A program made the position numbers and the translations under genes. Under the pieces are notes generated by a model that did no database searches, was not told the origin of the DNA, and worked only from the letters and a program-made list of their open reading frames with translations. From the NCBI GenBank assembly GCA_963836515.1, contig CAWIJX010000006.1, positions 324,809 through 388,808 on the forward strand: DNA of 64,000 nt, read 5' to 3'. The stretch is from an uncultured Phycisphaerales bacterium. Lineage in GTDB: Bacteria; Planctomycetota; Phycisphaerae; Tepidisphaerales; Tepidisphaeraceae. Positions 12,546 through 56,973 of the stretch are shown piece after piece; positions within the stretch are counted from its first letter, which is position 1, and each line of letters opens with the position of its first letter.

Positions 12546-14350
12546 AAGATTCGGGATTTGGGGTTTCGGGGTCGGCGGTGAGGATGGGGTTGAGGAGGAT
12601 CATTTGATCACTCTGACGGCGGGAGGTTCCAGGGAGGTCTGCCATAAACGGGCTCCAGTTGGGGGTTTACAGATCCGATGGCATCAACGCATTTAGATTC
12701 GTCCTGGAAAAAGCGGGCATGAAGTGGCCCCGGGGCGCGCACAAAGCGACCCCAAAGCGGCCCCGGGCCGGCACTGAGGCGGCACGAAAGGGCGCTGAAG
12801 CGGCCCCTGTTGGCGGGAGAGGCGGCAGCCCGGCGGGGCGAAGGTCATACGTCGTCGGCGAAGTTTTGTGCGCATGATGGCTCCTTGCGGGGTGCCTCGC
12901 TCTATGGTTGAGGCCACAGGGCGATGGATGCGCCCTTCAATATTCCCGTCGTCGCTGCGCAAATCGGTTTGCGTGAGCGCAACGTGGCGCAACACGGTGG
13001 GGTATCTCGCGGGGAAAGCGAGGGATCTGGCGTGTGGGCCAGCCGATCTGCGCAGCGCGCGTGTGAGGGGTCTGAGCCGGGCATGCCGTGGGCGCGGGGT
13101 TTGCTTTGGAAGCTGAGTGCGATGGCCAAAGGGGCGGAGAGAAGGAGGTGAACCGGATTTGCCTGATCCGGTTGCCAGGTTGCCAGGGGGCAGCTTCGCA
13201 GGAGGCGATGGCGGGCAGCATGGGCGGCACGGCGCAGCGCCGGCGATGGATCGGACGCTGTGGCCGCGCGGCCGGCCCAGGGCGGTGGCGGAGGAGGTGA
13301 TTTGGTCGCGGTAGGGACCGCCCTTGCGGGCGGCCCCCCGCACAGATCCGTACGTGCAGCATTACCGCATACGGCTCTTACCTCGGGTGTTTGGCGTGGA
13401 ATCGCACGTTGGGATAAGGATGCAGGATCTTGGGTCGGGGGAGCCATCGGGCCTCCAGCTTCGCGAATCGGTCCCAGGGCATACGATGCTTCTGACTCCG
13501 TCCGCGTAAGGCGAGTAGGCCACTTCACGCACGCGTAGCAGTCCGGGCGACACAACATCCCGGCTCTGAGTCCGGATTGTGGCGGCCTGCTCCGCGTTCC
13601 CTTCAGTTGACCGCCTTCCCTCCGCCTCATCCCGTTGCGCCTGCTGACGTCGCCGGGTGGCGTTGATCCGCTCCCAGAAAGTCCAGAAGGTCTCCTTCTG
13701 GTTCGCGGACTTCTCAGGTACTACGCGGTCATCCGACTTCCCGCACCCGTTCACGTCGCACGTGGGGTCATCGACCTTCTGCGACCGGCCCGTCGCGCCA
13801 TCTTCTGCGGCGGGCAGTTGCGGGATCTCCCGGTTCCCGTGCGAGGAGTTTCCACACGTGCTCAGGGTCTGCGACCGCGCAGGATCGGGCTCAGCCTCGC
13901 CTTGATCGGCTGCCCCGTGTGGCCTTCCGCATATGATTACTGCGTCGGCGCTCCTGGAGATGGGTATTTCGCGGCTCAATGGCTGGCCCGTGTGTGCCCC
14001 TGTCAACGCTTCGCCGCCGGCCTTGCGGCCGTCAACGCATGACTCGCTCTTCGGTGCGGCTGGCTATGCCTTCACCGTGTGACTCTTGCATTCACAACTC
14101 CTCGCCGGTCTTCCCGGCGCACAATCATGGCCCCTTTTCTGAATTCCGACGCCTGGTCCGCTGAACTCCGACCGCGCACGGCGTGAGCCAGCGCCGGAAT
14201 AATTATTTACGTCCCCTTTGTAGCTCCCGAGTGATTCACCAGGTTCGTCAAGAGACCTTACAGGCACCACCGCTGTCGGGAGGTTATAATGTGGCTGTTG
14301 CGGCAAGCGCGCAGACCGACGGGTTGACCATTGCATTAAGGAGTTGTCAC

Positions 14351-37557: not shown

Positions 37558-39584
37558 TTCCGAATTCCCATTCCTTCCGCTTCGGCTCATCCGCCGGAAG
37601 CTGCTCGATGTACCACCGCGCCATCTCGCGGTTGCGCTGCGCCCCGGCTTGTCGTTCAGCTTCGTCTCCAGCGCCTCGGCATATTCCAGGCGCAGCGGCA
37701 CGCTCGCGTGGTTCAGCCGTATCGCCTCTTCGTATTCCTCGCGGATCAGCGCACCATCGCCGCCGGGATGCTGGCGCTGGTATCGCGCCAGCGCCAGGTG
37801 ATACTGTCCGGCATACGGGTCTTTCTGAATGGCCAGTTCCAGGTAGCCCACGACCTGGTTGCGCCGCGCGCCCTGGCGAATCATCGCCACCGCGGCCCGA
37901 TACGTGTGGTCGGCGTCCAGCGGCTGCGACCTGCCCGCCTCGTTGTAGCTGCGGGCGGCCAGGTCAAATCGCCCTTCGCGCATGGCCGCATCCCCCTCCG
38001 CCCCGGCCGATTCGCCCGCGATGGTCGGCGCGGCCACCGAAACCAGCACCGCCACCCACGCGATGCTGGCCCCACACAGCCAGCCGATCGCCCATCCGGT
38101 GTGCCGCTTATGCCCGGCCAGCGATGGCTGCCGCACGCCCAGCGCACTGCCGGCTAACAGCGCAAAGAGAAACAGCGGCGACGTCTCCGACATCGCAAAA
38201 TCCAGCAGGTTGTGCAGCATGAACACGCCTAGCGCCGCGAGCATCCCATACAGCACCCACGGGCACGGGCGATCGTCCACGCTCTCGCCCTCCAGCGACC
38301 GCACGCCGGCGATCGCCATCCCCGCCACCAGCAGCATCAGCGCGATCATCCGCTCGACCGCCGAAAGGACCACCCACGAGAGCTGGGCTCCAAGGTCAAT
38401 TGATGCGAAGAAGTTAATTGCTATTGCCAGCGCGCCGATCAAAACCAGGCACAGCAGCTCCCGCCGGCCGCTGCGCCAGCACCCCCCCACCGCCGCTTTC
38501 GCCCGGAAATACCGGCCGGCTCAGCTCCCACCACAACCGCATCATCCACGCGGTCGCCAGCGCCCCGCCCATGATCCCCAACTCGGCAAAGCACTTCACG
38601 AAGAAGTTGTGCGGGTCGAGCACCTCCTCAACGGCCTGCGGCAGGCGCACGGCCAGATATCGCTCCCCGAAGTTGTCCCAGCCCACCCCCTTCACCGGAT
38701 GCTGCGCGATGAGCCGCGCCGCGCCGCGCCAGTAGTACCAGCGGAAGGTGAGGCTCTTGTTCAACGAGATTGCCGTGCTTCAGCGCGTGCCCGACGACCG
38801 AGCCCGCGCCCAGCACCATCGCCGCCGCGCCGGCACAGTACAGCCCCGTGGAATGGCGCGACATCCAGCCGCGCAAGTATCGCATCGCCAGTAATAGCAC
38901 GACCGCCAATACCGCCATCCCCCCCGCCGTCCGGCTATGTGTCAATGCAAGTACAACCACGACAAACGGAAACGCTGCCCCCATGGCGATGCTCCAGCCG
39001 ATCCCATCGCCGGCCGCCAGCCGATGGGCGATGATCCCGCCGCTCAGCACCGCCAGCAGCACGATGGCCGCCGCGTAGGTGTTGGGCGAGCTGGTGAAAC
39101 ACCCGATGTCGCCCTTGACCACCTTGTTTTCAAACTGCCGCGCGGCGAACGACCCCGGCTCCATCCGTTCATCGCGGAGGATCTGCTCGCGGTTCTTCTC
39201 GAAGTTCTCCTTGAGCATCGGCAGGTCGGAGTAGCGGTATTTCAGCCCGGCCGCCGCGTAGATCAGCAGCACGCCGAAGGCCAGCCCGGCCACGACGCGC
39301 AGCCTCCCCCAGCTTCGGACGAGCTGCGCCGCCGACCAGATGATGACCATCGCCGTCACGAAATTCATCGCGCCCACCAGCGCCACGAACTTGTTGCCGG
39401 CCCACATGACGCTGAGCAGCATCCACAGCGCCAGCGCCCCCATGGCCACCAAGCTCCACGACCAGCGAATCACATAGGTCGGATCAATCACGCGCCGGAT
39501 GAGCACCAGAATGGCTGGTATCGCGCACAGCAGGTCCAGCGCCAGGCTCGTGCCCGGCCCGGCCGTCCGCGGCGCGGCGGCCAT
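37555..39584 (-). CDS. O-antigen ligase (Wzy_C) family membrane protein with C-terminal TPR domain, two apparent frameshifts
   Basis: N-terminal/TM part in ORF 38628..39584 ('LALTHSRTAGGMAVLAVV'). Middle in ORF 38414..38764 ('WYYWRGAARLIAQHPVKGVGWDNFGERYL...HNFFVKCFAELGIMG'). C-terminal TPR in ORF 37555..38490. Confidence 0.6.
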
Positions 39585-39935
39585 CAGATCGTCGCCCTTG
39601 GGCTCGGTCCGCGCGGAAGCGGCGGCTCAGCGCTATCGTGCAGCGTCTCGCCCAGCATTCCCCGCGCGGCCACGACGGCCAGCAGCAGGATGAACGCCGC
39701 TCGCGTGAGCCATGCGCCCCGGCCGGTGGCCGGCGCTGCGTGGGCGGGCATCGTGCGCATGCGGATCATTTCGTCGTCTGCTCCGGCACGCGGGCGTCAG
39801 GGGTCATGGGGAGCGGATGCTGTTCCAGCACCATCACCACGCCCAAAATCAGCAGCGTCTGGCCGAAAATCAGGCATGCGGCAAAGCCCGACCTCACGTG
39901 CGGCAGCAGAATGGCCGCCACCGATGTCGCCGCGG

Positions 39936-41453: not shown

Positions 41454-42059
41454 ATGCCCATCCAAGCGCCATCGTATTCATACGAACAGATCGTTGAAGC
41501 GGCGCACATCTGCGGTATCCGCTTCAATCCGCGGAAGATCATTCCCGTTCCCATCGAAGACATCATCGATCTCGGTTTTCGGATCGACATCGTGCCGGAG
41601 TACGGCATGGAGGACCGGTTCCAGACCGTGGCTTTCATCACCAAGGATTTGAAGGAGATCCGGGTTGACCGGCGCGTGTACGACCGCCAGCCGGGGCGGC
41701 TCAGGTTCAGCTTGGCCCACGAACTGGCCCATGTGGTCCTCCACGCCGACGTCTATCGGCAACTCAGTTTCAACAGCACTGGCGAATGGAAGATGGTGAT
41801 GACGGGCATCGCTGAAAAGGAGTACTCACTCTTGGAGTACCAAGCCAACACTTTTGCCGGGCTTTTGCTTGTGCCACCGGAACCCTTGCGCGTTCACTTG
41901 GAGACCGTGATCCAGCAAATGCAGCAGATTGGCCTGGATATCCGGCACATGTCTGATGTCGTCTACGACCGCCTTATTGGCAAACTCGCGCAGGATTTTG
42001 ACGTGTCACGGGGGACGATCGGGAAGCGCATTCGTAACGATTCCCTCTGGCCCGCGTAG
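41454..42059 (+). CDS. ImmA/IrrE-family metallopeptidase (COG2856, DUF955)
   Basis: 'LAHELAHVVLH' HEXXH motif, 201 aa, directly downstream of an XRE regulator. Confidence 0.75.
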   Translation: MPIQAPSYSYEQIVEAAHICGIRFNPRKIIPVPIEDIIDLGFRIDIVPEYGMEDRFQTVAFITKDLKEIRVDRRVYDRQPGRLRFSLAHELAHVVLHADVYRQLSFNSTGEWKMVMTGIAEKEYSLLEYQANTFAGLLLVPPEPLRVHLETVIQQMQQIGLDIRHMSDVVYDRLIGKLAQDFDVSRGTIGKRIRNDSLWPA

Positions 42060-42109
42060 TGCCGCGCAGTACCGCAATCCGTCACTGCCTTCACAACCAC
42101 AGGAATTGC

Positions 42110-43569
42110 ATGCAGCCAATCCGCATTCTCACGCACGACCAACTGGCCATGATCAATGATGCCGCCGTGCGCATCCTGGAGCGCACCGGCATGGTCATCC
42201 AGTCGGAGGAGGCGCTGGACTGCCTCCAGCGTTTCGGCTGCATCGTCAACCGCGCCTCGTTTCGCGTGCGATTCCCGGCCACCGTCACGAGCGAGGTCGT
42301 CGGCCGCATGCGCCGCGACTATCTGCGCCCGGCCGGCCGGAACGGATGCCGGTGCGGTATTCGCACGTGCGATTCCGTTCCGCGCCGCATCGGGTACACA
42401 CCGATTTCACCGTGAGCGCCGGCGGGTTCATGTGCTTCCTTCAGGACATGGAGGGGCGCCGCCGGCCGGCCAACGGCGAGGATGTCCTCTGCTCGATCAA
42501 CTTGATCAATCAGCTCGATCAGATCGATCTCTCGGGCCTGCCTGTGTCGGACCAGACCGTCCCCGCGCCGCATCGGCCGGTGGCGATGGCGGCGACGCTG
42601 GCCAAATACACGCGGAAGATCGGCGGGGTGGAGACGTTCAGCGCATCGGATGTGCGATGGATTCACGAGATCGCGCAGGTGGCGGCCGGCTCGGCCGAGG
42701 AATTCGCGGCCCGGCCGGCGCTGATCGGCTACGCCGAGGTGCGCAGCCCGCTGTGTTTCGACCGGAACATGGTCGAGGTTTTCATGGAATACATCCGGCG
42801 GGGCATCCCCCAGACGGTCGACACCATGCCCTGCGGCGGCACGACCGCGCCGGTCACCGGCGCGGGAATCCTGGCGCTCGGCGCGGCCGAGACCATCGCG
42901 CCCATGGCGCTGGCCTACGCCATGCGCGAGGACGCGGTGGTCGCGATGGACATCTGCCCCTCCTACGCCGACATGACCACGGGAATGTATCGCTACGGCG
43001 GCGCGGAGCGCTGCCAACTCCTGATGGCCCGCGTGCAGTTGCTCTCGGAATACTACGGCTGCCCCACCGGCGTCCACGGCGGCAAGACCGATAGCTGTTT
43101 CCTCAACGAGCAAACCGGCGCCGAGAAGATGTCATCGATGCTCCTGACGGTCCTGGCCGGCGCGGTCGGCATCGGCACCGTGGGCGGCATCGAGAATGCG
43201 ATCACATTCTCGCCGGTGCAGTTGGTGCTCGACAACGAAATGGCCCGGAGCGTGCGACGGGCGGTATGCCGGCCATTCGACGTGACGGCCGAGACGCTGG
43301 CCACCGACGTGATCGCCGAAGTCGCCCCCGGCGGGAATTTCCTGGAGCATCCCCACACGGCCGAGCATTTCCGCGACGAGTTGCTCCTCTCGCCGCTGTC
43401 GCCGGCGCAGCCGTGGCACGCGGCCCACGCGAATCCAGCGCGATTCGACAGCAATCGCCAGGCGGAGGAGGTCGCGCGGGAGTTGTGGTGCCGGCCGGAA
43501 GAGCCGGTCTTGTCGGAGCATCAGATCAAGGCCATCGACGGGATTGTGGACAGGGCGACGAGGGAATGA
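42110..43569 (+). CDS. MttB-superfamily (trimethylamine/glycine-betaine-type) methyltransferase homolog, apparent frameshift near 42350-42400
   Basis: N-terminus 'MQPIRILTHDQLAMINDAAVRILERTGMVI' (ORF 42059.. frame). Body 'DTMPCGGTTAPVTGAGILALGAAETIAPMALAYAM...' (ORF 42346..43569). Confidence 0.6.
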
Positions 43570-48321: not shown

Positions 48322-48544
48322 ATTTTTCTGTCAGCACGTCCCGTTTTGTTGGACTTCCGCGTAGAAAGTTGTAGAGTGATTTCAATGCAGCATATTTTGC
48401 GGAGAGGCATCCGCGTTGTGGGTTTTTAGCAGTCACCGAGTTGCAAAAAACGAACGAGGATTTGGAGAGCGGGCGCTGATGCTTCCGCTTCAGTTGCCAG
48501 TCTGCGGAGAAGCTGCTTGCCTCCAGTTCCTTTGAAGGATCGAT

Positions 48545-49900
48545 ATGCACGACAACATGTCTTCGCCGAAACCGTCGCCATTGCGCCGGCCGGCGGAGCC
48601 AGGACCGTTCGATCCGGTCATCTGGCGACAGGTTCTTCAGGCCGTTCGCAATCAGCATCCGGGCATTCATCGCAAATGGTTCGATGAGATGACGCCGCGC
48701 CAGCTCACCAACGGCGTCATCCAGGTGAACGTCGCCACCGTTGCCCAGCTCGACTTCTGCCAGACGCAGTGCCAGCAGATCTTCACGGCCGCCGCCCAGA
48801 TGATCACGGGGCGGCTGGTCATGGTCAGTTTCCATTGCGATAACCTTCCCGCAAGCGGCGTGTTCAATGATGGCGACGTGCCTCTGAAGCTCAACCCCGA
48901 TTACGTCTTCGAGAACTTCGTCACCGGCCCGTGCAACCGCCTGCCCCATGCGGCGTGCGTTGCCATCTCGGACAATCCCGGCCAGGCCTACAACCCGCTG
49001 TTCATCCACGGCGGCGTCGGCCTGGGCAAGACGCATCTCCTTCAGGCGGTATGCCAGCAGGTCCTCGCAAAGCGAGCCGATTCGCGCATCCTCTACCTCT
49101 CCTGCGACAGCTTCATCAATCAGTTCATCAACGCCGTCGAAGCCGGCGAGATGAACCAGTTCCGCCATCGCTATCGTCACGTGGACATGCTCGTTATTGA
49201 CGACATCCACTTTCTCGCCGGCCGGGACCGCACCCAGGAAGAGTTCTTCCACACGTTCAACACGCTGTATCAGAACCACAAGCAGATTATCCTGTCGGCC
49301 GACTCGCCCCCCAGCGAAATCCCCGAGCTTGAGGAGCGGCTGGTCAGCCGCTTCAAGTGGGGCCTGGTGGCGCGCATCGACAAGCCCTGCTATGAGACGC
49401 GCCTGGCCATCCTTCAAAAGAAGGCGCACATCCGATCCTTCGAGCTGCCCGACGAGGTGCTCTGTTACATCGCCCAGCGCATCGAGAGCAATACCCGTGA
49501 GCTCGAAGGCGCCATCACCAAGCTCCAGGGCATGGCGATGCTGCAGGCCGGCCGCGTCGATATGGAGCTGGCCAAGGCCGCCCTGGGCGACACGGCCACC
49601 CCGGAGCAGAAGCGCATCACGATCCAGCAGATCCTGGACGTTGTCACCAAGTATTACAACGTCAAGCCCTCCGACCTGCAGAGCAAGAAGCGCCACAAGA
49701 GCATCGCATTTCCGCGACAGGTCTGCATGTTCCTCGCCCGCCGCCACACGCGCTACTCGCTGGAGGAGACCGGCGGCTATTTCGGCGGCCGCGACCACAC
49801 CACGGTCATGCACGCCGTCAAGACAATTCAGGCCGCCATGCAAGAGGAATCGAGCGTCGCCGAGCAGATCAACCATCTTGAAGCCGAGCTGACCGCGTAG
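48545..49900 (+). CDS. dnaA: chromosomal replication initiator protein DnaA
   Basis: Walker A 'GGVGLGKTHLLQA', 'LLVIDDIHFLAGRDRTQEEFFHTFN', and a C-terminal DNA-binding domain 'RHTRYSLEETGGYFGGRDHTTVMHA'. Confidence 0.9.
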   Translation: MHDNMSSPKPSPLRRPAEPGPFDPVIWRQVLQAVRNQHPGIHRKWFDEMTPRQLTNGVIQVNVATVAQLDFCQTQCQQIFTAAAQMITGRLVMVSFHCDNLPASGVFNDGDVPLKLNPDYVFENFVTGPCNRLPHAACVAISDNPGQAYNPLFIHGGVGLGKTHLLQAVCQQVLAKRADSRILYLSCDSFINQFINAVEAGEMNQFRHRYRHVDMLVIDDIHFLAGRDRTQEEFFHTFNTLYQNHKQIILSADSPPSEIPELEERLVSRFKWGLVARIDKPCYETRLAILQKKAHIRSFELPDEVLCYIAQRIESNTRELEGAITKLQGMAMLQAGRVDMELAKAALGDTATPEQKRITIQQILDVVTKYYNVKPSDLQSKKRHKSIAFPRQVCMFLARRHTRYSLEETGGYFGGRDHTTVMHAVKTIQAAMQEESSVAEQINHLEAELTA

Positions 49901-50054: not shown

Positions 50055-50381
50055 ATGGCCAGCGCCAACGTCAGAGAGTTCACCGACCAGACCTTCGAGA
50101 CCGAAGTTCTCAAGTCCACGCAGCCCGTGCTCGTCGATTTCTGGGCCGAGTGGTGCGGGCCCTGCCGGATGCTGGCGCCCACCATCGAGAAGCTGGCCAA
50201 CGACTACAACGGCAAGGTGAAGGTCGGCAAGGTCGATACCGACGCCAACCGCGACACCGCCCTCAAATACGGTATTAGCGCGATCCCAACAGTGATCCTC
50301 TTTAAGGGCGGGCAGGTTGCCCAGAAGTTCGTCGGGCTGCGCTCCGAGAAGGACTTCCGCGAGGCGCTCGACGCGGTGTGA
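50055..50381 (+). CDS. trxA: thioredoxin
   Basis: 'DFWAEWCGPCRMLAP', 108 aa. Confidence 0.9.
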   Translation: MASANVREFTDQTFETEVLKSTQPVLVDFWAEWCGPCRMLAPTIEKLANDYNGKVKVGKVDTDANRDTALKYGISAIPTVILFKGGQVAQKFVGLRSEKDFREALDAV

Positions 50382-50824
50382 GCTCGGTCGCCGTGAACTT
50401 TCATTGCGGCGGCGTCTTGCTGAAGCGGGGTCACGCGCCACGGCGCGGCGCTGTCTCATCGGCAATCGTTTATTGACATGATCCCGGCAGACGATGTAAT
50501 TAAACTGATTCGCGGCGATTGGTATGGCAATGGCGACTTACATGAGCGAGGGACCACGAGTTGAAAAACACATCACGTGCTCCAACGCGGGAAGGTGACC
50601 CGCCCGCGCGACCAGTGAACCGCACCCATCGGCTCACTGAAGAACCGGCCCGCCACGGCGCCGGGCGTCTGCATCACCCATCCAACGGCAATGGCAGCAG
50701 CAGTGGCGCCAACCACGTGGCGGCGCGGGCCAATGGCGCAGCGCATCATCGCGCCGTGCCCGACAGTTTCCTGCGCGACACCCAGTTCGTGCCAACGCGG
50801 GTGCATCGCACCCCGCCCAACATC

Positions 50825-51935
50825 ATGCGCATGCCGCTGCCCAAACGCATCAATGCGCTGGTCAAGCTCCACGGCACGCCGCTGATGCTCATCAGCCGCG
50901 ACGTGCTCACGCAGGAATACAAGCGTTTCCGCCGGCTGCTGCCGCGCGTCCGCCTGTTTTACGCCATCAAGGCCAACCCCCACCCCGATGTCATCCGCAC
51001 GTTTCGCGACCTGGGCGGCTGTTTCGACGTCGCAAGCGAAGGCGAGATTCGCCACGTGCTGAATCTCGGCGTCGATCCCGCCCGCGTCGTCTTCGCCAAC
51101 ACCATCAAGCGGCCCGAGGCGCTGCAGTTTGCCTCGAAGAAAGGTGTCGATCTCATCACCTTCGACAACGAGCCCGAACTCTACAAGATCGCCAAGAACG
51201 CCCCCGGTTGCCGCGTGTTGGCCCGGCTGAAGGTCGGCAACCTCGGCAGCCTCGTCGAGCTTTCGCTCAAATTCGGCGCGGATGAGGAGCAGATCGTCCC
51301 CATGCTCGTCAAGGCCCGTTCGCTGGGGCTCAAGCCCGAGGGCATCAGCTTCCATGTCGGCTCGCAATGCACCAACATGGAAAACTACCAGCGCCTTCGA
51401 GCAGGCCGCCCGCCTGATCAACGAAGCCCGCAGCCGCGGCCTGCCGGTGAAGATGCTCGACATCGGCGGCGGCTTCCCCATCCGCCACTTCAAGAGCGAC
51501 ACGGTCAATCTCGAAAGCTTCGCCAACCAGATGCGGCGCGAACTCGACCGGCTTTTCGCGAAGGACATCGACATCATCGCCGAGCCCGGCCGGGCCTTGG
51601 TCGGGCCTGCGGGCATGCTCATCACGCGCGTCGTCGGCCGGTCCATCCGCAATAACAAGAACTACTACTACCTCGACGACGGCGTCTACGGCGACTTCTC
51701 GGGCATCGTCTTCGACCACTGCAAGTACGAGTTCCGCACGCTGACCAAGACGCAGAAGTTCGCCAGCATCATCGCCGGCCCGACGTGCGATTCCTTCGAC
51801 ACCATCTCGCTCAGCGAGGAGCTTCCGGAGCTGGATGTCGGCAGCATCGTGTATGTCCCCAACATCGGCGCGTATAGCTGCGCCAGCGCGCTGACCTTCA
51901 ACGGCATCCCACCGGCGAAAGTAATCGTGGCCTGA
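50825..51935 (+). CDS. ornithine/lysine/arginine decarboxylase (PLP-dependent, Orn/DAP/Arg decarboxylase family 2), apparent frameshift near 51390
   Basis: 'RLFYAIKANPHPDVIRTF...GISFHVGSQCTN' (ORF 50561.. frame) continues as 'LDIGGGFP...AEPGRALVGPAG...GPTCDSFD' (ORF 51282..51935). Confidence 0.75.
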
Positions 51936-51947
51936 TGGTGGCTTTGC

Positions 51948-53372
51948 CTACTGGATCGCGTGAGACTTGGAGGCGGCTATCTCCAGGAACCGCCGCCTGT
52001 AGCCTTTCTTGAATAGCTCGCACGTGATCGGATCCTTGGCCATCGGGCTACCAGTCTCGGTCAGCGCCAGAGCCCGGCAGCCCATGCCGCACTCGCCGAA
52101 GAAACCGCACGCGGCGCATTCCGGGTTATGGGCGAGCACTTCCTTCTTCTTTCGGTCCACGAGCCGGCGAAACACGGATCGCTTCCACACCTTCGACAGC
52201 TCGCTGCGCAGCAGATTCGGCATCCGGGCCTGCAACGGGGTGTCCACATATCTGGGGCAGCGAATCAACGTTCCATCGGGCAGCACATGCGCCTTCTCGC
52301 GGCAGGCGGCACAGTCGTACTCATCCGGTTGATGGCCCCTGAGCCTGGGCTGCTCCCCCGGCCGAGCCCCATGAAAAAAGCCGCCGAGCACGATGGCGAA
52401 GGGTGATCCATCCCTGACCCAGCGCTCGGCCAGCGGGGCCAGGGCCCTTGCCTGCTCGTCCAGCGTCGCCGCGATGGTGGTCCCCCGCCAGTTGCCATTG
52501 GCATGGGGCGCCTCCAATCGCCATGTCTCAATGTCCAGCGTCTTCATCAGCTCGTAGGTCTCCGCCAGGCAGCCAAGGTTGAGCTTGCACAGAGAGGTGG
52601 CAACCGTCACCGAAAGGCCGGCGGCACGTACCCGCCGAATGGCGTCGATCGCGCCTCGTTCGGCCCCCTTCATCCCTCGCATCGCATCGTGCGCACCCAT
52701 CCCGTCGAAGCTGATCTGGAAATCCGGCCGGAAGCCCAGGCCCTTGATGGACCGCAAATGGCGGTCGGTGATCAGCAGGCCGTTGGATAGAATGCAGCGG
52801 AGGTGGATCTTCTGCTCGGCCATTCGACCGATGATGTCCAGCAGGTCGCGCCTGGCGAACGGCTCGCCGCCGGTGAGCAGAATATCGATCACGTTCGCCC
52901 GCTTGAACTGGTCGAGCAGCGCGAGCATCGCGGTCAAGGGCAGCTCGCCGTATCTGCCGCCGGGCGACTCCATGAAGCAATGCCGGCATTGCAGGTTGCA
53001 GCGGCCGGTCACGGCCCAGAGAATTTCGGCAACCCGCGGGTTCGGCGCTTGGCGATATCGCTGCCACGGCTCAATGGATGTTCGCCGTGGGCACCTCTCC
53101 GCGATGCCGTGCGCCAGCAGCCAATCGAGCATGCCATGGTGCTCGGGGAGAAAGGCCAGCGAGTCGAAGTCAGTCCGGCCGTCGCAGGACTCGGCCACGT
53201 AGAACCCCGTCGGTTTCAGCTCGTGCTGCTCTCCGGTCCGCCAGTTGACCAGCGCCCGCGGAATGTCACTCCAACCGCGGAGCAACCAGTCCGGCTTGAG
53301 TCTGGCGTACCGCCCCGACATCGCGCCGCGGTTCGTCTTGGGAGGTTGGTGTGCACGCATGATCGCGATCAC
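51948..53372 (-). CDS. radical SAM/SPASM-domain peptide maturase with N-terminal RRE-like domain (paralog 1, intact)
   Basis: 'WAVTGRCNLQCRHCFME' CxxxCxxC; 'LLTGGEPFARRD'; SPASM Cys clusters 'CAACREKAHVLPDGTLIRCPRY' and 'NPECAACGFFGECGMGCRALAL'. 474 aa. Confidence 0.85.
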   Translation of the reverse strand: MIAIMRAHQPPKTNRGAMSGRYARLKPDWLLRGWSDIPRALVNWRTGEQHELKPTGFYVAESCDGRTDFDSLAFLPEHHGMLDWLLAHGIAERCPRRTSIEPWQRYRQAPNPRVAEILWAVTGRCNLQCRHCFMESPGGRYGELPLTAMLALLDQFKRANVIDILLTGGEPFARRDLLDIIGRMAEQKIHLRCILSNGLLITDRHLRSIKGLGFRPDFQISFDGMGAHDAMRGMKGAERGAIDAIRRVRAAGLSVTVATSLCKLNLGCLAETYELMKTLDIETWRLEAPHANGNWRGTTIAATLDEQARALAPLAERWVRDGSPFAIVLGGFFHGARPGEQPRLRGHQPDEYDCAACREKAHVLPDGTLIRCPRYVDTPLQARMPNLLRSELSKVWKRSVFRRLVDRKKKEVLAHNPECAACGFFGECGMGCRALALTETGSPMAKDPITCELFKKGYRRRFLEIAASKSHAIQ

Positions 53373-53376
53373 AACG

Positions 53377-54846
53377 CTACAGGGCCGACGCTGCTATCTC
53401 CTGGAACCGTTTCTTGTAGCCCTTCTTGAGTAGCTCACAAATCATCGGCTCCCTGGCCAGCAGATCTCCGGTCTCGGTCAGCGCGGTGGCCCGGCACCCG
53501 CCTGCGCATTCCTTAAAGAGCAGTTCGCACGATGCGCACTCCGGGTTCCGGGCCAGCACGTCCTTCTTCCGAATATCCGCGATCTCGCGCAGGAACGAGC
53601 GTCTCCAGACCTTCGACAAATCCTCACGCAAGAGATTCGGCATGCGATCCTGGAAGATACTGTCCACGTAGCCGGGGCAGGGAACGAGAGTGCCGTCCGG
53701 AAGCAGGCAGGGCTGCTCCCGGCAACTACCGCAGTCGTAGCTGTCCGGCGTCAGCGTTTCGCGCTGCGGCATGTCCGCTGCTGCCTTTGAGTCCGCGATG
53801 CCGCGACGGGCCCGCCGCCGATTGGCGCCGTTGCCCGAGCCCTGCCCGACGGGCATCTCGGGTGATGGCATCCGAAGCATTTGCGGATCGAAGTGGCAGT
53901 AGAAGCCACCGAGCCTGATCATGAACGGCCGGCCGTCTTTGACCCAGGCTTCCAGCAGCGGCGCGAAGGCTTGCGCCTGCATTTCCAGGGATGCGGCCGT
54001 TTTGGCATGCCGCCAGTTCCCGGTCGCCTGCGGCGGCGAGATATTCCAGGCCTGGATGTCCAGCGTCTTCAGCAAACGGTACGTCTCGGCCAGGGCGCCG
54101 ATATTCAGACTGTCGATCAATGTGGCGACAGCCAGCGGGAAACCGGCGCGCGCACCCGGCGAATGGCGTCGATGGCCTTGGGTTCCGTGCCCTCGACCCC
54201 GCGCATCTGGTCGTGGGCGCCGACGCCGTCGAAACTGATCTGGAACACCGGCACGACACCAAGCTGCCGTATCGCTTCGAGATGGCGGTCGGTGATCAGC
54301 AGGCCATTGGAGAAGATCCGGTTGACATAGATCCTCTTGGCCACAAGCAGGGCCACGATCTCCAGAATGTCTTTCCTCAGGAAAGGCTCTCCGCCTGTCA
54401 GGGAAACCTGCACCACGTTGGCCCGCTCGAACTGCCCGACCAGGCCCGCCATCGCGGTGAAGGGAAGCTCGCCGTATCGACCCGATGGCGCCTCCATGTG
54501 GCAGTGCCGGCAGTTCAGGTTGCACCGCCCCGTCACGCACCAGTGAATCCCGATCACGCGCCCGTTCGGGCGCTTTGCGGTAGCGCTGGCACGGCTCGAT
54601 GCGCTCGCCCTTCCGGCATTGCTCGACAAGACCCTCGGCGATGAGCAGGTCAAGCATGGCGCGGTGCCCGGGCAGGAAGCAAAGCGAATCGAAGTCGGTC
54701 TGCCCATCACATGCCTCGGCCACGTAGAAGCCCATCTCATTGAGCGAGCGCTGCCGGCCACTCACCCAGTTGACGGCCATCCGAGGCAGATCGTCCCAGC
54801 CGCGAAGCAGCCAGTCCTTTCCCAGTCTCGCGTATCGTCCGCGCAT
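53377..54846 (-). CDS. radical SAM/SPASM-domain peptide maturase (paralog 2), at least two apparent frameshifts
   Basis: N-terminal and C-terminal SPASM parts in ORF 53377..54846 ('CGSCREQPCLLPDGTLVPCPGY', 'NPECASCELLFKECAGGCRATAL'). rSAM core 'IHWCVTGRCNLNCRHCHMEAP...SLTGGEPFLRKD' in ORF 54117..54761. Confidence 0.75.
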   Translation of the reverse strand: MRGRYARLGKDWLLRGWDDLPRMAVNWVSGRQRSLNEMGFYVAEACDGQTDFDSLCFLPGHRAMLDLLIAEGLVEQCRKGERIEPCQRYRKAPERARDRDSLVRDGAVQPELPALPHGGAIGSIRRASLHRDGGPGRAVRAGQRGAGFPDRRRAFPEERHSGDRGPACGQEDLCQPDLLQWPADHRPPSRSDTAAWCRAGVPDQFRRRRRPRPDARGRGHGTQGHRRHSPGARAGFPLAVATLIDSLNIGALAETYRLLKTLDIQAWNISPPQATGNWRHAKTAASLEMQAQAFAPLLEAWVKDGRPFMIRLGGFYCHFDPQMLRMPSPEMPVGQGSGNGANRRRARRGIADSKAAADMPQRETLTPDSYDCGSCREQPCLLPDGTLVPCPGYVDSIFQDRMPNLLREDLSKVWRRSFLREIADIRKKDVLARNPECASCELLFKECAGGCRATALTETGDLLAREPMICELLKKGYKKRFQEIAASAL

Positions 54847-54986
54847 GACATCCTCATTTCATGTTCCATGCGGGAAAAGCAGCTCCCGCGAGGCGATCAT
54901 TCCGCGCAGAACAGAAACAGGGCGTGCGGGGCGAGCCCCGCACGCCCCTGAACTGTCACGTATGCACATGGCCTCGCGGCCAGGAT

Positions 54987-55272
54987 CAATAGTAGCAGCC
55001 GGTGTAGGTGTCGAAGCCGTAGGGGCAATAGGACTGGCCGGCCACCTCGGGCACTTCGGCCGCGCTGCGTTTGGGGGCTTTGGCCTTGCGCCCTTGAGGA
55101 ATTCCTGCGCGGTGAACTTATAGCCCGCGGCGGAGGCGATCTTCGCCACGCCCGCCGCCGATTTTGCCTGGTTCTCCTTCGCCAGGCTTGCCTGCAGGGC
55201 TTTCATCTTCGCCTGCAGCGACTTGGTTGTCCCGACTTTCTCAAAGAAACCTTCTACGTCCTTCGCTGACAT
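54987..55272 (-). CDS. Nif11-type leader RiPP precursor peptide; the core is readable only after a 1-nt correction in a C5 run (plus G5 at 55073-55077)
   Basis: ATG 55272 with AAGGAGA RBS. Leader 'MSAKDVEGFFEKVGTTKSLQAKMKALQASLAKENQAKSAAGVAKIASAAGYKFTAQEFLKG' fits the Nif11 leader consensus (MS.E.L.AF..KV..D.SLQ.KL..IA..AGF..T..EL). A +1 shift after 'ARPKPP' gives 'KRSAAEVPEVAGQSYCPYGFDTYTGCYY' and stop TGA at 54989-54987. The uncorrected track ORF runs to 54859 as low-complexity sequence. Confidence 0.55.
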
Positions 55273-55546
55273 GTTTTTCTCCTTGACCCGTCAGGGTCTA
55301 TCAGAATGCTGCACAAAGATCGTCGCTGGACCGCCACGCGGGAGGGCCACGGGCCGCACACCAGCGCGGGTCCGACACATCGGCAATCCCCGAGGCGAAG
55401 GGCCTCTTGTCGAGTTGCTGCCCGAACTGTGCTGGCAGTGACATGGTCATTTTCGCGGGCTGGAACTGAATCCGCGAGTTCGCATGCTCAGTCAAAGTAC
55501 CCAGACGCTTGGCCACATGCAAACGTTACATTCGATTGCAGTCAAC

Positions 55547-56313
55547 TCATCGGCTGGCGCTCTCGGCGTATTGGTCGGCGAAGTGTTTCAGGAGCGTCTT
55601 CAGTTCGAACGTCCGCAGTCGCGGAAAGGCGCCCAGCAGCAGGGCGCACAGCCCCGTCACCGTTGGAGTGGCGAAGCTGGTGCCGGTCATCTCGCAATAG
55701 CCACCGCCGCGGGCCGGCGTCACCACGCGGGTGCCACGGGCCACGAACTCGATGGGCGGCCTGTGATATTTCAGCAGGTACGGCGAGGCGAAGTCGGCGC
55801 GGTCCACGTTGATGCAGGTCGAGATCTCGGCCGGCCAGCCGTTGTCCTCCAGCGGCATGTTCCGTTTGGCCGCGACGATCACGATGTTCCGCCGGCAGGC
55901 CCGGTCGCACAACTGGCGCAGCTCCGCCGCGAACTTCGCGTGACAGGCCAGGCTGAGGTTGATCAGGCGCATGCCCCGGTCGATGGCCATGCGCACTCCC
56001 GCCAGCAAGGCGGCGCCGGAGCCGGCGCAACGGGCATCCAGCATGCGAATATCGAAGATACGGGCATTGGGGGCGATGCCGGCGATGATCCCGGCGACGC
56101 CGGTGCCATGCCCGAAGACATCATTGTTCCGGCCGGGGCGGCATTGAGCCGGCTCGGCGGGCGGCTCGATCTTCCACGCCTCGGCCACTCGCTTACGAAG
56201 ATCGGGGTGCCGGGAATCGACTCCGGTATCCACCACCGCCACGTCGATCGGCGCCAGCCGCGCGCGGCGAGGGATTGCAGCGAGACGCCAAGGGCTTTGT
56301 CGAATGCGTTCAT
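55547..56313 (-). CDS. subtilisin-like S8 serine peptidase (cytoplasmic; candidate leader peptidase), apparent frameshift near 56250
   Basis: Catalytic triad contexts 'VAVVDTGVDSRHPDL', 'HGTGVAGIIAG', 'GTSFATPTVTGLCALLL' (ORF 55547..56518). N-terminus 'MNAFDKALGVSLQSLAAR' in ORF 55963..56313. Confidence 0.7.
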
Positions 56314-56973
56314 GCCGTCGCCCCATCGCAGAGGGCGCCCACCGCCCCAAGCACCGAGCGAATCTCGCGCAGGCGGTTCGGATGCCTGCGGATAAGGTCG
56401 GCCACGCCCTCGACGATCCCGGCGCGGAGCCGATCCGCCGGCCGGCCGAGGCGCCCCGACCGCCGCAGTTGATCGACCTCCTGGAGCCGCCGCTGCTGGT
56501 CAACCACGACGGCCGCAACGGTCGCGATCTTCGCCTGCAACTCCGCGTCGTGGGCGGTGAATCGCTTCTCCGCCGCGAAACTGACGGCGGTGATCACGCC
56601 GCACACTTCGTCGCGGATCAACATCGGGGCGGCGATGACCGCCGTCGGCTGGTTGCGCTGGCCGGCCTTGCGCAGCGCGCTGGCGGATGTCCTTGAAAGT
56701 CGGCGCGCCAATCTGCACCTCGCGCGTGGCCACCGCCAGGCCGGTCAGGCCCTGGCCCAGGGGAACCCGCTGGCCCATCAGCGTCTTCTCCGACCCTCCG
56801 GTCGTCATGGCGAAGACGAGATGACGCTTGGCGCGATCGAGGACCAGCAGCAACCCCTCCTCCGCGCCCACGCATTGGACGCCCAATTCGACCAGCAGCC
56901 GCAGGACCGCCCCTTCGGGTGTTCGAGGCATGATCCCCAGAAACGCCGACAGGATGCGGTCGGATGACGGCAT
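56310..56973 (-). CDS. GAF-domain protein, apparent frameshift near 56700
   Basis: 'ILSAFLGIMPRTPEGAVLRLLVELGVQCVGAEEGLLLVLDRAKRHLVFAMTTGGS' (ORF 56500.. frame) then 'QPTAVIAAPMLIRDEVCGVITAVSFAAEKRFTAHDAEL' (ORF 56310..56711). Confidence 0.6.

Follow-up and report, generated by a model that had tools for sequence, protein, structure and literature searches.

Nif11-like leaders (TIGR03798 / PF07862) define a group of precursors of peptides that are synthesised ribosomally and then modified after translation (RiPPs), described by Haft et al. (2010), as cited in PMC10885120 and PMC11002830. Such leaders are normally cut at a double-Gly type site by a peptidase-containing ATP-binding cassette (ABC) transporter (PCAT), which carries a C39 domain (PMC10885120). 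In the triceptides, products of enzymes that form cyclophanes over three residues (3-CyFEs), an aromatic residue i is joined to the C-beta of residue i+2 in an Omega-x-X motif (PMC11002830). The locus described here lies in a 64,000-nucleotide stretch of contig CAWIJX010000006.1 from an uncultured Phycisphaerales bacterium; this whole stretch is hereafter called the window. A compact five-gene island on the minus strand contains, in order, a GAF-domain gene, an S8 peptidase gene, a precursor gene and two genes for radical S-adenosylmethionine (rSAM)/SPASM maturases, rSAM1 and rSAM2. The precursor gene is printed as an open reading frame (ORF) of 137 codons. This ORF is very probably an artefact, because the assembly lost one base, and the true gene would be a 95-codon RiPP precursor within an rSAM/SPASM system. 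We assign a probability of roughly 85% to this gene model and system assignment taken jointly, chemistry excluded. As predicted, the system works like a Nif11-led rSAM RiPP system and departs from it in three features: the leader–core junction, a GAF-S8 module in place of the PCAT, and a maturase outside the curated families.

Hidden frame and corrected precursor gene

The printed ORF (55272..54859, minus strand) encodes 137 aa. The first ~60 residues form a Nif11 domain (Pfam E = 2.7e-9), and after EFLKG the frame continues as ARPKPPNAARPKCPRWPASPIAPTASTPTPAAT..., a low-complexity Pro/Ala tail that the initial annotation of the window had noted. The neighbouring minus-strand frame reads ...RKAKAPKRSAAEVPEVAGQSYCPYGFDTYTGCYY and then TGA, so that its translation ends in ...AEVPEVAGQSYCPYGFDTYTGCYY at the stop. 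In the corrected gene, which comprises 95 codons and a stop (54986..55272, minus strand, where the window sequence is one base short), the two frames are joined. The encoded protein consists of the leader MSAKDVEGFFEKVGTTKSLQAKMKALQASLAKENQAKSAAGVAKIASAAGYKFTAQEFLKVRKAKAPKRSAAEVPEVAG followed directly by the core QSYCPYGFDTYTGCYY. The Nif11-type leader has 79 residues (55037..55272, minus strand) and ends in E-V-A-G, in which V77-x-G79 is invariant in the family and stands just before Q80. The core has 16 residues and occupies 54989..55036 on the minus strand in the corrected frame. A clean TGA stop follows at 54986..54988 (minus strand); the stop had been recognised in the initial annotation, with coordinates one base off (54989-54987 in place of 54988..54986). 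Upstream, direct reading of the sequence reveals an AGGAG ribosome-binding site (55279..55283, minus strand), located 6 nt from the ATG.

The corrected precursor matches Pfam Nif11 with E = 6.6e-10, and PF07862 gives 39.6 bits on the leader against a cutoff of 23.8. TIGR03798 gives 33.0 bits in the corrected frame, covering profile positions 1-67 of 68, and 26.6 bits as printed, the cutoff being 32.3. When a hidden Markov model (HMM) was trained solely on relatives sampled elsewhere, its positions 1-63 fell on the printed frame (E = 1.6e-25) and its positions 60-94 on the alternative frame (E = 5e-9), with the hand-off between the two frames at positions 60-63. These matches in two frames place the alternative frame, as a predicted coding frame, far beyond chance. 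Furthermore, the GC content at third codon positions (GC3) over the same bases is 0.85 in the corrected frame versus 0.56 in the printed one, and intact genes range from 0.81 to 0.88.

A terminator- or attenuator-like hairpin with 13 bp, 11 G-C pairs and a T-rich tail (54905..54948, minus strand) sits 39 nt past the corrected stop and within the printed 137-aa ORF; in the gene layout of the island, the hairpin is entered at 54948..54919. Its RNA fold has an energy of -51.3 kcal/mol (z = -4.3), and 0 of 200 shuffles fold as well. A sigma-70 promoter scan upstream of the precursor found none, and Rfam gave no match near the cluster.

Site and nature of the missing base

The near-identical contig L001, a Logan assembly contig of run ERR10755942, carries the precursor gene intact, which agrees with the earlier proposal that a one-base assembly error hid the core. 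L001 is 99.75% identical to the window over 56259..54663 (blastn, 1595/1599 identities), and the alignment gap that marks the one-base deletion falls at 55091..55092 on the minus strand. Here, the window reads CTCAAGG followed by GCGCAAGG on its minus strand, and L001 reads CTCAAGGTGCGCAAGG, with an extra T between 55092 and 55091. In the shorter alignments, AAGGTGCGC of L001 stands opposite AAGG-GCGC of the window, and CTCAAGGTGCGC opposite CTCAAGG-GCGC; the window form without the T at 55091/55092 is AAGGGCGC. This T is the only difference between L001 and the window inside the precursor gene, and the deletion site is situated outside any homopolymer.

The initial annotation had located the error in the C5 run (55073..55077, minus strand; plus-strand GGGGG, flanked by T and C). 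The run is present as stated, and a C inserted into it yields exactly the 95-aa sequence given there. However, the same run is also C5 in L001, where it forms part of Ala-Pro-Lys (GCC CCC AAA), and the base that is missing is the T at 55092/55091 in non-homopolymer sequence, so the error had been misplaced by 14 nt. The core and the stop are the same under the T insertion as under the C6 correction, and the leader is not: because the missing T precedes the C5 run, leader residues 61-67 are VRKAKAP and not GARPKPP. The true leader stretch is ...EFLKVRKAKAPKRS..., compared with ...EFLKGARPKPPKRS... in the version based on C6, and the leader with the restored T reads ...AQEFLKVRKAKAPKRSAAEVPEVAG. 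All relatives carry [AV]RKAKA at this place, in agreement with VRKAKAP.

L001 has frame-breaking differences of its own at positions 437 and 1511 (window ~55823 and ~54751), in the S8 gene and at the start of rSAM1, and at both sites the window agrees with the orthologues. In the window, at least seven frame breaks are confirmed, two in rSAM1 and the others in the GAF gene, the precursor gene, an Orn/Arg decarboxylase gene, an MTTB gene and a Wzy_C gene. The mapped indels affect runs of 2-3 bases or lie outside runs altogether, never in long homopolymers, and many long genes of the window are intact; the earlier statement that most other genes share a homopolymer indel was thus too strong. At a second locus from run ERR10755942, the Logan and ENA assemblies are 100% identical, and therefore the disagreement between assemblies is specific to the host organism, possibly caused by lower coverage. 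Since genes outside the cluster are broken too and the breaks of L001 lie at different sites, the pattern of breaks, as read from the contigs, indicates consensus noise rather than pseudogenes.

In the three broken genes outside the cluster, the breaks take different forms. The gene for the pyridoxal-phosphate-dependent Orn/Arg decarboxylase (50561-51932, plus strand) has its Orn_Arg_deC_N profile split at position 172. In the MTTB-family gene (42038-43566, plus strand), profile positions 17-98 and 124-497 are found in different frames, and the Wzy_C-containing gene (37558-39626, minus strand) is in three pieces.

Orthologues and the short-core subfamily

The C6 reconstruction, used as a query against 5.8 billion proteins, returned P0001, a 95-aa protein encoded on L001 with an identical core (E = 3e-49), as well as the printed 137-aa ORF itself (P0002, from the 463,865-bp source contig) and two orthologues of 91 aa, which end in EVAGQYYCPYGLGTG[WP]GNYW. 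Metagenome and profile searches yielded the further short cores QAYCPGGFDTGWGCYW, QYSCPWGFDTGAYCYY, QYYCPYGLSTGPGNYW and QYYCPYGIGTDYGCYW. Besides the core of P0001, other samples contribute six distinct short cores, QAYCPGGFDTGWGCYW, QYSCPWGFDTGAYCYY and QYYCPYGLSTGPGNYW among them, in precursors of 91-95 aa. The intact P0001 and the orthologues bear out the proposal of a hidden short core after a Nif11 leader and a Gly-containing junction.

In the short-core subfamily, Q1, C4, P5, G7, T10 and Y15 are invariant, giving the consensus C-P-x-G-[FLI]-x-T. Position 9, five residues after C4, is D, G or S. The core had been called rich in Cys and Tyr, of which the Cys part holds in part: the subfamily always has C4, and position 14 is either Cys or Asn. 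The PYG of the window core becomes PGG in L005, P0172 and P0180, and PWG in P0199. Judged from sequence, five independent lines of evidence indicate that the hidden core is real.

Maturases and the GAF-S8 pair

The two rSAM/SPASM genes begin 139 nt past the precursor stop codon. rSAM1 (53377..54846, minus strand) is the orthologue of the single maturase of locus L002, with 62-73% identity. It contains two frame switches near 54573 and 54147 (tblastn high-scoring segment pairs in frames -2, -3 and -2), which divide the gene into three frame segments and stem from single-base indels; at the first, CGGGCGC has gained a G, and at the second, GCGCGCCGG has lost a G/C. rSAM2 (51948..53321, minus strand) is an intact paralogous maturase of 457 aa with the motif CNLQCRHC, a seven-Cys SPASM domain and an N-terminal module of ~95 aa. 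All of 41 sequences retain the CNLQCRHC motif together with C337, C340, C355, C402, C405, C411 and C415.

The AlphaFold2 model of rSAM2 (mean predicted local distance difference test score, pLDDT, 90.7) begins with a beta-sheet/helix module at the N-terminus and also comprises the rSAM barrel and the SPASM domain. The top Foldseek matches of the model are SkfB, SuiB, PqqE and CteB, which share 15-18% identity with it. Over the full length, the best structural alignment is that with SuiB, which covers 483 columns with a template modelling (TM) score of 0.66 and includes the N-terminal leader-binding domain. In Pfam, the N-terminus of the maturase gives no PqqD or RiPP recognition element (RRE) match; the topology of the model and the full-length SuiB alignment suggest that this module is RRE-like.

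In comparison with the curated models, rSAM2 remains below the cutoffs of the thioether synthases StsB (NF045574, 72.9 bits against 625), PapB (NF047865, 53.3 against 340) and SkfB (TIGR04403, 47.6 against 300). The SCIFF maturase model TIGR03974 is matched only by the damaged rSAM1 ORF, with 21.8 bits against a cutoff of 425. TIGR04103 (nif11-class maturase 3), which we take to be the PlpX-family model, gives 67.5 bits against 725. For WgkB (NF050035) and TIGR03913, considered as crosslink-forming families that may be related to the cyclophane enzymes, the scores of 84.7 bits against 650 and 72.5 against 591.75 mean only that the enzyme joins none of the curated families listed. The MftC model TIGR03962 is aligned over nearly its full length and gives 93.1 bits against a cutoff of 265.

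Upstream of the precursor, the S8 gene (55547..56326, minus strand) encodes a compact subtilase of ~259 aa with the D/H/S triad and without a prodomain (Pfam Peptidase_S8, E = 8.4e-27), 66% identical to the S8 protein of locus L003. The GAF-domain protein (56310..56973, minus strand) has one frame switch near 56657. The stop of the GAF gene overlaps the start of the S8 gene by ~17 nt, and this overlap suggests that the two genes are translationally coupled. Neither a C39 nor an ABC gene is present in the cluster of the window, and the major facilitator superfamily (MFS) exporter and the 357-aa protein of L002 have no counterpart in the window.

Comparison with described systems

The precursor resembles Nif11 precursors in its ~79-residue leader scoring above the model cutoffs, its Gly end, its short core and its gene situated directly upstream of the maturases. 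In contrast to these precursors, the Gly-Gly is replaced by an invariant V-x-G/Q junction (A-G in the window; the slash marks the predicted cut), and the C39 PCAT by the compact S8 protein and its GAF partner.

In the QhpC/QhpD/QhpE(/QhpF) system of quinohemoprotein amine dehydrogenase, the substrate of an rSAM/SPASM enzyme is a peptide with Cys residues, whose leader is afterwards cut off by a small subtilase that has no prodomain. The S8 protein of the window aligns to nearly the whole QhpE model, and an ABC exporter is present in the relative L027. However, the S8 protein gives 92.3 bits against the NF049966 cutoff of 165, the cores lack conserved Cys-Asp/Glu pairs (position 9 being D, G or S), the predicted product is a small free peptide rather than an enzyme subunit, and the GAF partner has no counterpart in Qhp.

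With the sactipeptide and ranthipeptide maturases (SkfB, CteB, PapB and the SCIFF maturase), the window enzymes share the RRE-like N-terminus, the rSAM barrel and the seven-Cys SPASM domain. Every core contains Cys, as in the sactipeptide and ranthipeptide systems, and the best fold matches include SkfB and CteB. Nevertheless, the identity is 15-18%, and the NCBIfam scores of 22-73 bits compare with cutoffs of 300-625. The cores, known here from genes, are rich in aromatic residues and have a C-x4-[YWF] spacing that differs from known donor/acceptor patterns.

In the case of streptide (SuiB) and PQQ (PqqE), the likeness lies in the full-length alignment to SuiB and in the aromatic-rich cores, but a Lys-Trp or Glu-Tyr motif is absent and the identity is ~15%. 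The spliceotide (PlpX/PlpY) and triceptide systems likewise employ rSAM/SPASM enzymes on peptides with Nif11 or nitrile hydratase-like leader peptide (NHLP) leaders and aromatic motifs (PMC11002830). Unlike the spliceotides, the window family does not conserve X-Tyr-Gly, and the RRE-like module is fused to the enzyme, with no small RRE gene in the cluster. Compared with the triceptides, aromatic residues are abundant and the short cores have no conserved Omega-x-[NDRKS] triad, although Y-x-Y-C recurs in long cores. The difference from mycofactocin (MftA/MftC) consists of a score below the MftC cutoff and C-termini other than Val-Tyr.

Wider family

The maturase is 57-65% identical to enzymes encoded beside very different cores in ~25 fetched loci, most of which belong to metagenome-assembled genomes (MAGs) that fens and peat have yielded for Planctomycetota and Verrucomicrobiota (Opitutia). 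More distant maturases, with 45-51% identity, are found in Heliobacteriaceae, Desulforamulus aquiferis and Sporomusa malonica. The family comprises at least 226 maturase clusters and at least 134 precursor clusters, all under generic names, and no description of it was found in the literature. A scan of reference genomes with the precursor found no relative; the scan with the maturase returned MAGs and one isolate only.

V77, G79 and Q80 do not vary among 15 diverse precursors (alignments A1 and A4). In L010 (549-893), one precursor contains two ADVTG/QEDPFC... cassettes and thus appears, from its sequence, to combine two cores in one peptide, each with its own copy of the cleavage signal. Relatives again encode GAF, S8 or both, as a GAF-S8 pair in L003 and L027/L028 and as GAF alone in L021. 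In L027 (7604-13613) and L028, two 100% identical assemblies of one locus from run ERR10755942, a Nif11 precursor, an rSAM enzyme, GAF, S8 and an ABC exporter are co-directional and are followed by a cyclic-nucleotide (cNMP)-binding protein; the ABC exporter of L027 has no C39 match on record. On one contig, two rSAM genes come after a precursor of 95 aa, the arrangement seen in the window. In the cultured Negativicute Sporomusa malonica (CP155572; L029, 7164-9356), a 50%-identical maturase directly follows two NHLP-type precursors. These have Cys-containing cores (...AGG/GGAASCDNGLAKSLPGCSFCW), and a LytTR two-component system adjoins them.

Cys is present in all 76 distinct cores and, apart from Q1, is the only residue found in every core; 56 of the 76 have exactly three. 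Aromatic residues make up ~25% of the cores, and YY, YW or WY forms the C-terminus of nearly all, with WT, VF and others also observed. An aromatic residue is situated at Cys+5 in 36 of 70 cases (51%), compared with a mean of 22% in within-core shuffles of 26 core representatives with <50% pairwise similarity, and 0 of 2000 shuffles reach the observed count. The C-x4-[YWF] spacing is seen in the family cores P0125-P0187 and L006-L023; an example of a long-core member is QWTDCSGGTYSYCTAQNWSCIGYSYY. In L025, from the Heliobacteriaceae relatives, the pattern is C-x3-C-x3-C, which we take to be sactipeptide-like.

In a noisy assembly of the long-read style, one indel suffices to make a RiPP precursor of 95 aa look like a 'hypothetical protein' of 137 aa, and further indels have broken one of the maturases. 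Because the indels disguise the precursor and break a maturase, automated mining for biosynthetic gene clusters would miss or misread the cluster. With the gene corrected, the locus falls into a coherent RiPP family without a specific name, in rarely mined bacteria of the Planctomycetes–Verrucomicrobia–Chlamydiae (PVC) group. Such a family offers a definite place to look for a new crosslink in peptides, and the cultured distant relatives Sporomusa malonica and Desulforamulus aquiferis would make experiments feasible.

Proposed maturation and chemistry

In the proposed pathway, the leader would dock onto the RRE-like N-terminal module of the two adjacent rSAM/SPASM enzymes, as the structural model suggests, and these enzymes would modify the core. 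The compact S8 subtilase, with its GAF partner, may then cut V-x-G/Q at G79/Q80, by analogy with described systems, which makes S8 a candidate leader peptidase. The freed N-terminal Gln could subsequently cyclise to pyroglutamate.

The predicted modification consists of one or two Cys-derived thioether macrocycles of the sactipeptide/ranthipeptide type, anchored on C4. Thioethers are favoured because Cys is present in all the cores, C4 is invariant in the short subfamily and the L025 pattern is presumably sactipeptide-like; even so, we rate this chemistry at slightly under an even chance. The linear core has a calculated mass of 1929.723, which each crosslink would lower by 2.016 Da and pyroglutamate formation by 17.027 Da; pyroglutamate with one crosslink would thus correspond to 1910.680, and with two to 1908.665. 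A further and more doubtful proposal is that the family represents a new RiPP class. Its rSAM/SPASM enzymes might install a crosslink of a hitherto undescribed kind, for example from Cys to the aromatic residue at +5, repeated up to three times, and the GAF-S8 module might cut V-x-G/Q; the short C-P-x-G-[FLI]-x-T cores would then form a second topology, possibly requiring the extra maturase paralogue.

Alternative explanations

If the deletion were real in the strain, the precursor and its cluster would be decaying pseudogenes, an explanation to which the four frame breaks inside the 5-kb cluster lend some support. However, housekeeping-type genes beyond the cluster are likewise broken, and the second assembly from the same run has an intact precursor and different breaks, at which the window is correct; such decay is therefore improbable. 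Even less probable is a C5 run (55077..55073) that is really C6, with a leader reading ...EFLKGARPKPPKRSAAEV..., although this version restores the same core and stop and passes the TIGR03798 cutoff. L001 keeps C5 and has its extra T 14 nt upstream, the [AV]RKAKA of all relatives requires a frame switch ahead of the run, and it is in the alternative frame that RKAKAPKRS aligns to the HMM built from relatives. Alternatively, the printed sequence might be correct, in which case the precursor would arise by programmed -1 frameshifting near AAG-GGC, or the 137-aa Pro-rich protein would itself be the product. In favour of frameshifting, no stop interrupts the alternative frame, and the product of a -1 slip, LKGRKAKAPK..., would match the orthologues in length. 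Nevertheless, the site has no X-XXY-YYZ slippery heptamer, no relative requires a frameshift, and the printed tail has a GC3 of 0.56-0.60 and crosses the terminator-like hairpin, so both versions are scarcely credible.

With the gene and the system as proposed, the chemistry might instead consist of C-C or C-O crosslinks on Tyr, Trp or Phe (triceptide, streptide, PqqE or darobactin type), or of a modified C-terminal aromatic dyad (MftC type). The aromatic content of the cores and their YY/YW/WY ends are consistent with such a product, as are SuiB and PqqE among the top fold matches and MftC as the NCBIfam model that aligns over nearly its full length, at 93 bits. The enrichment at Cys+5 also means that the aromatic residues may be reacting partners. 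On the other hand, only Cys, apart from Q1, is found in all 76 cores, the short cores have no conserved Omega-x-[NDKRS] motif, and every curated cutoff is missed widely; aromatic crosslinks are accordingly less likely than thioethers, but a serious rival to them. The P-Y-G of the window core also recalls the spliceotides, whose precursors can have Nif11 leaders and carry the motif X-Tyr-Gly (PMC11002830), and the maturases would then be spliceases that remove tyramine at this place. Since the motif is not conserved, being PGG or PWG in the closest relatives and missing from the long cores, splicing at PYG is very unlikely; in addition, the cluster has no separate PlpY-like RRE gene, and TIGR04103 remains far below its cutoff.

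Several points weigh against the proposed precursor, its system and its predicted chemistry. L001 probably comes from the same sample as the window assembly, and so is an independent assembly with its own errors rather than an independent organism. The evidence consists of assembled contigs, so a real deletion in the strain retains a small probability. There is no exporter gene in the cluster of the window. Identity between the maturase and any solved enzyme is only 15-18%, no curated NCBIfam cutoff is reached, and at such distances rSAM chemistry is unpredictable (PMC10288494). The thioethers, for which the odds stand just short of even, are predicted from genes alone, and the putative roles of S8 and GAF derive solely from co-occurrence and analogy. 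Finally, the C-x4-aromatic spacing of the family is missing from the short-core subfamily to which the window belongs.

Genomic neighbourhood

The island is flanked by housekeeping genes, namely those for DnaA, a thioredoxin and the decarboxylase on one side, and a homospermidine-synthase-like gene and UppP on the other. The full-length DnaA gene (48536-49897, plus strand) lies ~2 kb from the cluster, and because of this proximity the island may be situated near the chromosomal replication origin. A weak leader-like stretch, KFTATELTPRR...SGQ (50305-50400, minus strand; E = 0.11), runs antisense to the thioredoxin gene and is most likely due to chance.

The window contains no tRNA or rRNA. Two RNA domains of a group II intron, RF00029 (43 bits; 13305-13379, minus strand) and RF02005 (154 bits; 13865-14086, minus strand), are separated by ~490 nt. 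This gap is too short for a full reverse-transcriptase ORF, and the intron is therefore ORF-less or degraded.

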